A DNA stretch of 64,000 bases from an uncultured Bacteroidales bacterium (GTDB taxonomy: Bacteria; Bacteroidota; Bacteroidia; Bacteroidales; UBA932): positions 2,332 to 66,331 of the forward strand of contig CAMVSK010000012.1 in NCBI GenBank assembly GCA_947170165.1, read 5' to 3'. The translations under genes and the position numbers were made by a program. The stretch's first letter is position 1, and every line of letters starts with the position of its first letter. Shown piece by piece: positions 56,161 to 59,710 of the stretch. The notes below the pieces were generated by a model that ran no database searches, was not told the origin of the DNA, and worked only from the letters and a program-made list of their open reading frames with translations.

Positions 56161-58058
56161 TTCTGAATCTGATTCTATCGGTAGTGGTCGGCGGAATGCT
56201 GGGCCACGCAATCGACGCGGGCTACGACGGCCGCCTCGCCCAGTACATCACCGGCCCCGACAGCTACGCCATCAACCTCTTCTCGCCCGAAAAGATAGCC
56301 CAGGGCAAGGGCGGATGGCAGGGGGAGCACGCCGGAAAATGGCTCTACGCCGCATCCAAGGCTTACGAGCGCACCGGCGACCCGGTCCTGCTTGGTAAGC
56401 TGGTTGCGGTCGCGGACTATCTCATCTCCCGCCAGGAGAAGGATGGATATCTGGGCTGCTACCGCGAAGACAAGCGCTATTACCACCGGCCGGGTCCGGA
56501 GGCGATGAAGGTGGACTGGGATACCTGGATCATGGCATATTTGATTAAGGGCTTCACCGAGGCGAGCGTGGCAACTGGCGACCCCAAGTACGCCGACTGC
56601 GCGCTGCGGATAGTGGAATTTCTGCACTGGACCGTGTTCGAGCAGGGAATCAAGATCGCCCAGACCGGGCAGCACAGCGGAATGGCCGGCTGTGGAATAC
56701 TGGATCCCCTCTGCGACCTGTATGCCCTGCGGCCCGAGCCCAAGGTCCGGGAGATGATCGAGCGCTGTATTTTTGAGCTGGACGACACGCCCTGCCTGCA
56801 GCTGATCACGCTGGCGGGGAAGGGGTACGACGTTGCGCTGATAGGCAACGGCAAGATTTACGAGATGCTGCGTTGCCTCACCGGTATGGCGAAGGCCTAT
56901 CAGCTTTATGCAGACGGGTCCCTGCCTGGCGGGAAGTCCAGCTCCGATCCTCTGCTGGCGGCCTGCACCAACGCCTGGGAAAGCATATGCAAATGGCATC
57001 TGACCACCCTCGGAGGCCCCTGGGGCGGCATCAACTTCTGCTGGGAGCTTTTCAACCGCCTGGCCGAGTGGGCGCCCTACGAGTGCACGGAGACCTGTTC
57101 CGTGATGCAGTGGCTGAACTTCAACTGGGAGCTGCTGCGCATCAGCGGCGACGGCAAGTTCGCATCCGAGATAGAGAAGACCGCATATAATGCCTTGATG
57201 GCCGCCCGCGCCGAAGATGGCTTGAGGTGGGAATACTACGTGCGCACCAACGGCGAACTCACTCCCCGCGGGGACTGGGCCTGCTGCTGGAGCAGCGGTA
57301 TGGTCGCCCTCGAGGACCTGCCGTGCTATGTGTATGATGTCCGTCGCGACGGGCTCTATGTGAATGTGATTTCGGAGGGAGTGTTCGAGGGCGAGGTCCG
57401 TGGGAAGAAGGTTCGCGTGGAGCAGGTTTCGGACTATGCCCGGACGGGGGTGGCGGAATATGTGGTGGGCGGACCTGGAGTCTCTGGTGTCTCTGATGCC
57501 GCCGCTTCTCCCAAGACTTTCCTGCTGGCCATCCACCTCCCCGAATGGGCCCCCTCCTTCGAGGCCTCGGTTAACGGCAAACCCGTCAAGGTCAGCGTCA
57601 AGAACGGATACATCCGCATCAAACGCAGCTGGAAGGCCGGCGATCGCCTGACTCTGAAGTTCCCCTACGAGATCCGCACCCTGGAGAAGACCTGGGAATA
57701 CCGCAACGCTGGCAAGAAGGAGTACAACTTCTCCAACTGGTACAACGGTTTCACCAAGCACTACGTGACCTTCAGCGCCGGCCCCCTGGTGTATGCCTGC
57801 GACCACGCCGACTCCTTCGAGAAGCAGAATCCGCTCAAGTTGAGTCGGGAAGAGATCGCCTCCGCCCGGCTGGAGAACGGTGCCACCGGCACTTCCGGCA
57901 CCTCTGGCACTGCCGCCTCTGGCACTGCCGCTTCCGCGTCCGTAATGGCCCCTACACCAATTCTGAAGGTCGGCGGCCTGAACCTGACCCCCATCGCCCT
58001 CCTGCCGCCCTTCGGCGACGGCCTCCAGTGGCGCACCACCTGGTTCCAGATACAATAA
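56157..58058 (+). CDS. GH127/GH146 beta-L-arabinofuranosidase-like cysteine glycosidase
   Basis: GEHAGKWL, ETCSV, ACCWSSG (Zn-Cys ligand motifs), GYIRIKRSWKAGDRLTLKFP, GPLVY. Start at MILNL overlaps the SOD stop (ATGA). Confidence 0.85.
   Translation: MILNLILSVVVGGMLGHAIDAGYDGRLAQYITGPDSYAINLFSPEKIAQGKGGWQGEHAGKWLYAASKAYERTGDPVLLGKLVAVADYLISRQEKDGYLGCYREDKRYYHRPGPEAMKVDWDTWIMAYLIKGFTEASVATGDPKYADCALRIVEFLHWTVFEQGIKIAQTGQHSGMAGCGILDPLCDLYALRPEPKVREMIERCIFELDDTPCLQLITLAGKGYDVALIGNGKIYEMLRCLTGMAKAYQLYADGSLPGGKSSSDPLLAACTNAWESICKWHLTTLGGPWGGINFCWELFNRLAEWAPYECTETCSVMQWLNFNWELLRISGDGKFASEIEKTAYNALMAARAEDGLRWEYYVRTNGELTPRGDWACCWSSGMVALEDLPCYVYDVRRDGLYVNVISEGVFEGEVRGKKVRVEQVSDYARTGVAEYVVGGPGVSGVSDAAASPKTFLLAIHLPEWAPSFEASVNGKPVKVSVKNGYIRIKRSWKAGDRLTLKFPYEIRTLEKTWEYRNAGKKEYNFSNWYNGFTKHYVTFSAGPLVYACDHADSFEKQNPLKLSREEIASARLENGATGTSGTSGTAASGTAASASVMAPTPILKVGGLNLTPIALLPPFGDGLQWRTTWFQIQ
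57879..57935 (+). repeat. Degenerate 9/15-bp tandem repeat encoding GATGTSGTSGTAASGTAAS
   Basis: GGCACTTCC GGCACCTCT GGCACTGCCGCCTCT GGCACTGCCGCTTCC. Confidence 0.8.
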
Positions 58059-58109: not shown

Positions 58110-58198
58110 GTGCTGTCGACGTCCTGAAAAACCGGACGTCGACGGCATTTTAGGCCCTTTTGACGTTAACGTCCGGAAAACCCGGACGTCAACAGCAC
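58110..58198. repeat. REP-doublet (REPIN-like) double hairpin, copy 1
   Basis: TGCTGTCGACGTCC-[TGAAAAACC]-GGACGTCGACGGC, spacer, GTTAACGTCCG-[GAAAACC]-CGGACGTCAACAGCAC. The two ends are also 14/15 inverted repeats. Confidence 0.9.
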
Positions 58199-58317
58199 TT
58201 TTGCCTTCTCCTGATCCACATAGACTCCGATTGGAGCCTTCCACCGACAGAAGTTGAATCGGTTAGCACCCCGTCGATTCGATTAAAGATTTTCTTGATT
58301 CTATCATCTGGATTATT

Positions 58318-58325
58318 TATATTTG
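58318..58325 (+). promoter_or_regulatory. -7 box (TATATTTG) upstream of HUH nuclease
   Basis: Exact TAnnTTTG match 99 nt before ATG 58425. Confidence 0.5.
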
Positions 58326-58424
58326 TCAAAGTTGAAACGTGGAGTTGATAGAAGGGCTGAGATCCCATGCTGTCACTTAAATAGAGCGTTAGAATGAAGT
58401 TGAAGTATTTAAATTTATTGACAG

Positions 58425-59285
58425 ATGGCGTGCTTTCTGGTTACGACCGATCACTTGTCGGATCGGATTTGGTTCAAGGATAAGGAGGACTTCAAGGTCG
58501 GGATGAATTACGTGGCAATTGCTGCATTCATTCTGAACGTGAAGGTTGTGGTATTCATTCTGATGTCCAACCACGTACATTTTATTATTATCTGCAACAC
58601 CGAAGCGGAGGCTCGGGAGTTCGCGGATTATTACAAGAACCTGTACAGCAGATACTACAGGAAAAAGTATGGCATCAACGAGTTCTTGAGAGATGTGGGT
58701 GTGGATGTCCGTGAGATTGAGTGGGAAGGGGAGTCATTCGAGAGGGCTACCGCATATGTTATGATGAACAGTGTCGCGGCCAATATCTGCATGAACTGCA
58801 CCCAATATTCGTGGGGAACGGGATCGCTGTACTTTAATCAAAAGCCGGAAAAGGGTACAATGCTGATGAATATCTCGCGCCGGGCACAGATCAGGCTGCT
58901 TCACAGTAATGTGGAACTGCCGCAGAATATGATCGTGCTGGACGAAGGTTACATCTCCCCGGCGTCTTATGTTGATGTGCAGTTGGTAGAGCAGGTATTT
59001 CGAACCCCTAAACGCATGTTGTATTTCTTGAATACTTCATCCAAGGCGAAGGTTAAGTATTCTGCGATGCCATCATTCAGGGATCAGACCATCATCTCTG
59101 CGGCGGAAGACATTTGCCGCACACTTTTCAGTACCGATTCTATAGAGGCTCTGTCGGAAGATCAGAAAACGGACTTGATTCAACAGCTGCGTTTCAGGTT
59201 CAGTGCCGACGTGGCGCAGTTGTGCCGGGTTATTGGAAGTTCGTATGAAAATGCTTCCAAGATGCTGGATCCTCTGCATATTTAG
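58425..59285 (+). CDS. HUH Y1 tyrosine transposase, RAYT (REP-associated)-like, with C-terminal helical/HTH-like extension
   Basis: RIWFKDKEDF, HUH motif FILMSNHVHF, catalytic-Tyr segment AYVMMNSVAANI...QYSWGT (compare RAYT YIxxNPVxAG...YxWSS). At 286 aa it is much longer than IS200 TnpA. Confidence 0.85.
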   Translation: MACFLVTTDHLSDRIWFKDKEDFKVGMNYVAIAAFILNVKVVVFILMSNHVHFIIICNTEAEAREFADYYKNLYSRYYRKKYGINEFLRDVGVDVREIEWEGESFERATAYVMMNSVAANICMNCTQYSWGTGSLYFNQKPEKGTMLMNISRRAQIRLLHSNVELPQNMIVLDEGYISPASYVDVQLVEQVFRTPKRMLYFLNTSSKAKVKYSAMPSFRDQTIISAAEDICRTLFSTDSIEALSEDQKTDLIQQLRFRFSADVAQLCRVIGSSYENASKMLDPLHI

Positions 59286-59403
59286 ACGTTTAGACGGCGC
59301 AGGTTCCCACATCGATTTCTTTTCAGGTTCTATTTCAAACACCTGCCCAAACGCTTTTCAAGTGGCAGATTCCTTTCAAGAATACCGTCAATATGCTTTT
59401 CGA

Positions 59404-59493
59404 CTGCTGTCGACGTCCCCATATTACGGACGTCGACGGCGTTTTAGGCCTTTTTTGACGTTAACGTCCGTGTTTTCCGGACGTCAACAGCAC
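59404..59493. repeat. REP-doublet (REPIN-like) double hairpin, copy 2
   Basis: TGCTGTCGACGTCC-[CCATATTAC]-GGACGTCGACGGC, spacer, GTTAACGTCCG-[TGTTTTC]-CGGACGTCAACAGCAC. Stems are identical to copy 1 and loops differ; same orientation. Confidence 0.9.
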
Positions 59494-59525
59494 CTACGTT
59501 GAACTGAGACGGGTTTGGAGAGATC

Positions 59526-59710
59526 AGGGGGGGGAATGGTGTGGAAAGGGCGGTGAAAGGGGATGGGGATTGGGACGTGGAAAGGGTGAGGGTGGGAATG
59601 AAGTTGGTGAGAAGGGTGAGGAAAATGGAAAGTAGAGGGAGAATAGGAGAGGAATGAAGATTGAGAGGGTGAAGGTGGGAGGGGTGTTGGAATGCGGGGA
59701 TTGGAGTTTT
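59526..59710 (+). other. G/A-rich, C-depleted tract (14 runs of 3 or more G)
   Basis: Only 3 C in 185 nt (59551, 59576, 59695); G8 run at 59527-59534. Confidence 0.9.

Follow-up and report, generated by a model that had tools for sequence, protein, structure and literature searches.

The stretch of DNA analysed here (the window) is 64,000 nucleotides long and corresponds to positions 2332-66331 of contig C12 in G000, a 46-contig draft genome (2.55 Mb) of a rumen Bacteroidales bacterium. This text concerns a gene on its + strand, at 58425-59285, which encodes a 286-aa protein of the HUH-Y1 type and lies between a GH127 gene and a gene for an UpxY-like protein, together with the two repeats that flank it, each composed of two hairpins and hereafter called doublets (58110-58198 and 59404-59493). 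The gene and its doublets are examined as a probable counterpart of the REPtrons, in which a REP-associated tyrosine transposase (RAYT) is encoded next to the repetitive extragenic palindromes (REPs) that it recognizes.

The gene, its product and the flanking doublets

The protein has an N-terminal nuclease-like domain of about 135 aa and a C-terminal helical domain of about 150 aa, the latter ending in a three-helix unit that resembles a helix-turn-helix (HTH). In an alignment of 36 homologues, the HUH motif N49-H50-V-H52 (NHVH at residues 49-52) and Tyr111, located within AYVMMNSVAANI, are all invariant, as are C-terminal positions in SSKAK, in PSFRDQ and in the terminal HTH-like stretch. 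The tyrosine motif of the family is AYVxMN[SCP]V, found as AYVxMNxVAANI. The invariance of the catalytic HUH and tyrosine residues indicates that an enzymatic function has been retained.

With the Pfam family Y1_Tnp the protein scores 23.7 bits, barely above the cutoff of 23. Its AlphaFold (AF2) model has a predicted local distance difference test (pLDDT) value of 88.8, and the top match of this model in the Protein Data Bank (PDB), as found by Foldseek, is 4ER8 (E = 2e-4), the E. coli RAYT bound to a REP hairpin; the TnpA proteins of IS608 and ISDra2 come next. The C-terminal 150 residues, modelled alone, yield a pLDDT of 90. No significant match was obtained for this domain in Pfam, PDB-sequence or Foldseek searches, the last of which presented a weak likeness to DnaA, ParB and sigma region 4 (E >= 0.6), and these resemblances are to HTH DNA-binding modules. 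The description of the protein as a very divergent, unannotated RAYT-like HUH-Y1 relative of the REP-associated nucleases that act on single-stranded DNA (ssDNA) is largely supported.

A putative promoter for the gene, suggested by its sequence, is the motif TATATTTG at 58318-58325 (+ strand), about 100 nt 5' of the ATG and inside the segment bounded by the doublets. The -7 promoter motif of Bacteroidetes is TAnnTTTG, which TATATTTG fits. The motif overlaps a promoter-like match at 58295-58323 and is kept in the orthologue at locus L116, whose protein is 91% identical. A second copy stands about 6 nt 5' of the annotated ATG of the UpxY gene.

Both doublets lie in direct orientation on the + strand, which places the same element at either end of the gene. 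The upstream doublet (89 nt) scores 79.8 bits with R1, a covariance model of the doublet, and folds as ssDNA with z = -6.1; its hairpin A, at 58111-58147, has arms 58111-58124 and 58134-58147, which form a 14-bp stem around the 9-nt loop TGAAAAACC, and is followed by the 13-nt spacer TTTTAGGCCCTTT (58148-58160) and by hairpin B at 58161-58197 (arms 58161-58174 and 58184-58197). The downstream doublet (90 nt) scores 90.4 bits and folds with z = -4.8. It is built from hairpin A at 59405-59441 (arms 59405-59418 and 59428-59441, loop CCATATTAC), the spacer TTTTAGGCCTTTTT at 59442-59455, and hairpin B at 59456-59492 (arms 59456-59469 and 59479-59492, loop GTGTTTTCC). In each doublet the two hairpins, both with 14-bp stems, are joined by TTTTAGGCC(C/T)TTT. 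When both strands of both doublets were folded as ssDNA, two hairpins formed in every case, with z between -4.4 and -6.1 relative to shuffled sequences. The core motif GGACGTCRACRGC has six exact matches in the window, all of them within the two doublets, when 0.33 would be expected by chance; the count becomes seven if a single one-mismatch site elsewhere is included. The doublets match no known RNA family in Rfam, and a simple scan for intrinsic terminators does not flag them. No conserved sequence was seen in the flanks outside the doublets.

These results bear out the preliminary description of the locus, made from the window's letters alone, in placing a 286-aa HUH-Y1 gene between repeats of 89 and 90 bp with two hairpins each: coordinates, motifs and folding all agree with it. 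It had stated that all four stems are identical between the copies, which holds (four of four) save at the outermost position of arm A3', which is A in one copy and G in the other, and that the loops differ while keeping their length, which is correct; the B loops are, in addition, near reverse complements of each other (GAAAACC and TGTTTTC). The palindrome GACGTTAACGTC, which it had assigned to the spacer, is actually the 5' arm of hairpin B, itself palindromic. It was right, too, that the tetranucleotides GTAG and GATG are missing: neither occurs within the two doublets, nor is there a GTAG or GTGG foot.

Doublets and paralogues within the genome and the genus

A search of G000 by BLAST and by covariance model revealed 15 doublet loci, all intergenic, of which six flank three family genes and nine are solo. 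Seven of the nine solo doublets are of the window's type, with 71-86% identity, and keep their stems via compensatory changes, such as TGCGGTTGAC/GTCAACCGCA on contig C19 and TTCAC/GTGAA on C20. Some of the solo copies are located in divergent promoter regions. The genome also carries two paralogues with about 50% identity to the window's protein, on C17 and C5, each flanked by doublets with a stem sequence of its own; paralogue identity in G000 reaches at most 51%. More distant paralogues of about 310 aa, with 24-29% identity, are encoded on C4 and C8 and are accompanied by other hairpin repeats, among them those at C4:13922-14058, C4:15116-15183 and C8:71965-72001. The hairpin types at these paralogues include GTTTGTTCC-N18-GGAACAAAC arrays and GGGAAAGGTCCCC-N9-GGGGACCTTTCCC, and model R1 does not detect them.

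Two observations on larger blocks stand apart from these counts. A 250-bp block composed of a doublet with about 120 nt to its left and about 37 nt to its right occurs twice in G000 (C6:100345-100594 and C5:142347-142596), with 96% identity, and recurs in different contexts in related metagenome contigs. In locus L135 (positions 760-1835), on a metagenome contig, a gene for 6-O-methylguanine DNA methyltransferase (MGMT) lies between doublets of the window's type placed 985 nt apart; the homologous contig of G000, C6, from position 100466 to its end, stops at about the point where L135 has the second doublet, and its last bases are without a doublet arm.

The protein has more than 1,464 close homologues. 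Most of these are without any source name, and the few named ones are listed as 'hypothetical protein [Bacteroidales bacterium]'. The family is large: at E <= 1e-30, an exhaustive profile search retrieved 222 clusters defined at 50% identity, and at E <= 1e-3, where distant matches come in, the number rises to 6,163. The genomes that carry the gene are rumen metagenome-assembled genomes (MAGs), some labelled Candidatus Cryptobacteroides, and among 201 genomes from 167 genera of the order, matches at E <= 1e-10 are limited to the window's own genus. As judged by these searches, the family is restricted to one Cryptobacteroides-like genus, within which a genome has between 0 and 13 copies of a family gene; genome G021, for instance, has nine paralogues that are at most 68% identical.

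Of the 76 loci in other MAGs that could be assessed, 43 have flanking repeats, which are mostly direct and measure 60-95 nt, and hairpin doublets adjoin most family genes. The geometry of the doublets is constant while their stems vary by locus: each hairpin spans about 37 nt, and in 30 of 37 doublets the two centres are separated by 51-52 nt. Among 33 aligned doublets, changes on both sides are seen for 26 of 28 stem pairs, and 85% of the cells pair, compared with 63% in shuffled sequences and 31-44% when the partner is slid, yet this count describes the structure and is no independent proof of it, given that the doublets had been picked for forming hairpins. The conserved positions are the foot (T-A and G-C) and one apex pair (G-C, 32 of 33 doublets).

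In three loci (L082, L085 and L088), the gene is adjoined by tandem arrays in which at least three hairpin units recur about every 52 nt and which resemble clusters of bacterial interspersed mosaic elements (BIMEs). Five loci of genome G014 (L146, L147, L149, L150 and L152) have near-identical doublets whose shared sequence extends into the flanks beyond the doublet. In this MAG, which is 81% complete, no family gene was found beside those five doublets; the doublets are either orphans or belong to a gene that the bin failed to capture.

The association between protein and repeat was evaluated by running R1 over 41 genomes, with a close homologue defined by E <= 1e-70. R1 has 3-30 matches in exactly the nine genomes that encode a close homologue and 0-2 in the other 32, a co-occurrence with a Fisher p of 2.9e-9 over the 41 genomes and of 4.9e-7 within the genus. 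Most of the matches are solo copies, as in genome G007, where they account for about 13 of 15 loci. The window's own doublet type was found in G000 alone of 26 genomes (none of the 25 others). Protein identity and stem identity are also correlated, with a Mantel r of 0.48 that none of 2000 permutations reached.

Stability of the locus and competing explanations

The segment that runs from GH127 through doublet, gene and doublet to UpxY is identical in five independent samples. At 96% (L126), 89% (L142) and 82% (L134) DNA identity, and likewise in L116 at 91% protein identity, the order and the doublet stems are retained and the loops have changed. Hence, the locus is syntenic in relatives, unlike what an actively transposing insertion sequence (IS) would produce. 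No near-identical copies of the gene exist within any genome examined, the maxima being 51% in G000 and 68% in G021.

Searches for empty sites gave no pair of empty and filled sites for any solo doublet, the genus representatives being 65-71% identical. For the solo doublet on C20 in particular, no empty site was found across 61 congeneric genomes, whose DNA is only 65-71% identical and non-syntenic, too distant for the search to be informative. Scanning metagenomes by doublet pattern retrieved 18 loci and no clean empty site; nine of the 18 are chance matches, and the others represent either this RAYT locus or the C6/C5 block, as present in close relatives.

One breakpoint at a doublet was found. 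Between the orthologous loci of G021 and G007, 94% identity extends as far as the 3' foot of the downstream doublet, at its last bases; past that foot, G007 has 2.27 kb where G021 has 0.26 kb of unrelated DNA, and the two then match again at 96%. One solo doublet is orthologous in the two genomes. In G007, five doublets of the same orientation lie within 7.8 kb around the gene and delimit four segments, with ordinary genes between them that have no relation to one another (for GH30, a thioredoxin-like protein and a CAAX protease). A REPtron would be expected to show clustering of this kind near its gene, which is also the sole hint here at a cassette-like arrangement.

Given these results, the unit is probably REPtron-like: a gene fixed in the chromosome, for a divergent RAYT-type HUH-Y1 nuclease/ligase of ssDNA, with cognate repeats on both sides. 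This reading is carried by the fold of the protein and its invariant catalytic residues, by the doublets that flank the gene and are dispersed elsewhere, by their co-occurrence and co-divergence with the protein, and by the stability of the locus. The cognate element is taken to be the doublet of about 90 nt, whose two hairpins of about 37 nt have centres 51-52 nt apart and are joined by a T-rich spacer with GGCC. Its stems follow a common plan, with a conserved foot (5' TG...CA 3'), a conserved G-C pair at the apex (GTCC-loop-GGAC) and, between the two, a middle that varies from family to family. The action of the protein is suggested by analogy with E. coli TnpA(REP) and IS608 TnpA. A dimer would bind the hairpins in ssDNA, and the HUH site with Tyr111 would cut and rejoin at or near the hairpin foot, the C-terminal HTH-like domain possibly adding DNA contacts. 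Cutting and rejoining of this kind may now and then have placed copies of doublets at further intergenic sites and rearranged the DNA at doublet edges.

Several points weigh against this interpretation. On the protein side, the NCBIfam model REP_Tyr_transpos (NF047646) gives 25.3 bits, far under its cutoff of 80, and a PDB sequence search with the profile of the 36 homologues reached solved structures only at E >= 0.08. Canonical RAYTs read a GTAG guide through a W-Q motif; this motif is absent from the family alignment, in which [LF][LF]R stands at its position (36 homologues, aligned by eye), and the doublets are without the GTAG guide. As for the repeats, an upstream/downstream pair was not found by BLAST in 33 of the 76 assessable loci, and even the flanking 16-mer found most often is present just three times in G000, which implies that no high-copy master sequence exists. 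The copies, at about 70-86% identity and without a master sequence, give no sign of recent proliferation, and their low number is unlike the proliferating population of REP doublets forming hairpins (REPINs) of the Pseudomonas kind. The selection behind the covariation count and the missing empty/filled pairs belong here as well, and linkage alone could contribute to the co-divergence of protein and hairpin.

If the unit were an autonomous IS similar to IS200/IS605, doublet, gene and doublet would move as a whole via a single-stranded intermediate, with the doublets as its ends. The HUH-Y1 fold is common to the TnpA of IS608 and of ISDra2, the gene has a hairpin-bearing direct repeat on either side, its spread within the genus is patchy (0-13 copies per genome), and many of the metagenome contigs that bear it are just 1.1-1.8 kb long, as if bounded by repeats. 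An ordinary IS is nevertheless unlikely because near-identical gene copies are lacking in every genome examined and the site between GH127 and UpxY is kept down to 82% DNA identity. Besides, solo doublets outnumber the genes (9 versus 3 in G000 and about 13 versus 2 in G007), the ends are one element in direct orientation instead of distinct left-end and right-end hairpins, and no tnpB partner gene is present, which leaves this explanation quite improbable. It is also unlikely, albeit less so, that the host maintains the doublets as cis-elements on account of their structure, such as protein-binding sites, sites of transcript end or stability, or replication or supercoiling sites, with an HUH protein that is non-transpositional or merely linked to them and with a dispersal that is ancient or due to recombination. 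The diverged copies that keep their stems via compensatory changes indicate selection on structure rather than recent copying, and the geometry constant across families, the several solo copies within divergent promoter regions, the solo doublet orthologous between G007 and G021, and the T runs that follow the hairpins on the + strand would all suit such elements. However, doublets are absent in congeneric genomes without the close protein clade, which argues against a general host requirement, and each doublet type is species-specific. The terminator scan flags none of them, Rfam offers no match, and the invariant catalytic HUH and tyrosine residues point to a retained enzymatic function.

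Finally, the doublets might bound exchangeable segments in a cassette system, loosely like the attC sites of integrons, in which the HUH enzyme would cut the feet and swap DNA. The four segments marked off by five doublets around the G007 gene, the MGMT gene enclosed by doublets in L135, and the G021/G007 replacement, which begins exactly at a doublet foot, agree with such a system. Yet the enclosed genes are ordinary and unrelated, the single breakpoint found has one of its two ends at a doublet, the same segment was never seen at two places, and local hopping in a REPtron equally predicts clustering near the gene; we hold the cassette system to be very improbable. A broader picture may also be drawn, which is conceivable but unlikely: the family would be a genus-restricted HUH-Y1 radiation whose paralogues each read their own middle-of-stem code on a fixed double-hairpin scaffold, that is, a set of orthogonal ssDNA recognition pairs, and cutting at the foot would drive segment replacement, so that doublets would act as boundaries of local exchange and not merely as selfish repeats.

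In light of these comparisons, the preliminary description correctly recognized a RAYT-like HUH-Y1 enzyme, the top fold match being 4ER8, and a REP/REPIN-like arrangement, for which both a REPtron-like layout and dispersed doublet copies were found; counting the repeat genome-wide, as it had proposed, added seven further intergenic sites, at a low copy number. Between the two alternatives it had left standing, the REP-RAYT pair is favoured over the autonomous transposon, given paralogues at no more than 51-68% identity and synteny to 82%. The role in connection with capsule genes that it had suggested was rejected, since an UpxY-like gene lies within 1.5 kb in only two of 91 family loci.

Comparison with known systems and neighbouring sequence

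RAYTs are exemplified by the E. coli protein (4ER8) and, in Pseudomonas, by Bertels groups 2 and 3. Knowledge of REP-RAYT systems is almost wholly Proteobacterial, and there the GTAG guide defines them. REPtrons and RAYTs are well established (PMC2817692, PMC3116915, PMC5581495), and the present unit shares with them an HUH-Y1 fold with one catalytic tyrosine, a gene flanked by cognate hairpin repeats that are also dispersed extragenically, doublets whose two hairpins can alternatively fold into a single long one, genomes with several divergent enzyme/repeat pairs, and a stable chromosomal position without duplicate gene copies. It differs from them in having a foot TG...CA and an apex GTCC/GGAC in place of a 5' GT[AG]G guide read by W-Q, a protein of 286 aa whose last 150 aa or so form an additional helical, HTH-like domain, and doublets with a fixed centre spacing of 51-52 nt. 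Its copies number about 2-15 per type, with no master sequence, compared with tens to hundreds, and its REP_Tyr_transpos score is 25 bits for a cutoff of 80.

Non-GTAG systems have been described in the phylum. Subclass 2.6 of TnpA(Y1) (Bertels group 5) is found mostly in Bacteroidetes and has atypical, non-GTAG flanking structures (Quentin et al. 2018, PMC6006769); its members carry WQ, have YIH[QN]NP as their Y motif and structures described as 'weaker', and reach a median length of 179 aa (PMC6006769). The present family resembles this subclass in phylum, in its REPtron-like layout, in non-GT[AG]G structures copied elsewhere and in the NH[LIV]H motif, but, going by the published descriptions, differs in the length of its protein (286 aa), in lacking WQ, in its motif AYVxMN[SCP]V and in having strong stems of 14 bp. 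In subclass 2.1 (Bertels group 1, including TIRYTs), the proteins have a C-terminal HTH (Bac_DnaA_C, HTH_23 or HTH_28), and no REP-like sequences were reported, although some members have terminal inverted repeats (PMC6006769). The NHVH motif, a large conserved HTH-like C-terminal domain and a low copy number are common to this subclass and the present family; in contrast, the latter is flanked by hairpin doublets, and its Y motif differs from YIELNP/Y[IV]HLNP. The present protein has no match to Pfam Bac_DnaA_C. With its large C-terminal domain and clear REPtron layout, the present family fits neither subclass 2.1 nor subclass 2.6 by its sequence motifs. As for the TnpA of IS200/IS605, the HUH-Y1 fold is shared, as would be the recognition of ssDNA hairpins, whereas the present family lacks identical copies, distinct left-end and right-end hairpins and tnpB, does not have Y..NQ as its Y motif, and has a gene locus that is syntenic across species.

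Since the doublet stems contain CGTC, the CGTC-tagged REPs (PMC3733652) were considered as well, and were rejected: these have stems of 8-9 bp, loops of 4-5 nt, an unpaired terminal CGTC tag and no transposase. We found no paper on a system like the present one in Bacteroidales. The recognition sequence without GTAG stands as the preliminary description had it, although the novelty it implied was overstated, as REPtron-like, non-GTAG units of Bacteroidetes, with a different and shorter type of protein, had already been reported (PMC6006769). What is new is the architecture of the protein and the double-hairpin design of the repeat; the logic of the REPtron, a system built on a domesticated transposase, was already known. 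The family thus keeps that logic with a different protein architecture and a rigid double-hairpin design, and tools based on exact words would miss its repeats, given that the commonest flanking 16-mer occurs only three times. The many paralogues with distinct stems in one genus constitute a natural experiment on how the hairpin specificity of HUH enzymes changes, and the family is a possible source of orthogonal HUH tags. The doublet repeats also break metagenome assemblies of an abundant rumen lineage.

The neighbouring sequence presents two further features. At 57883-57930, near the C-terminus encoded by the GH127 gene, in-frame tandem repeats of 15-18 nt encode a Gly/Thr/Ser/Ala-rich insert, GTSGTSGTAASGTAASAS, which the orthologue at L116 is without. 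Between the downstream doublet and the UpxY gene, at 59494-59700, a tract of about 200 nt is purine-rich on the + strand (GGGGGGGAATGGTGTGGAAAGGGCGG...) and has an imperfect periodicity of 30-36 nt.

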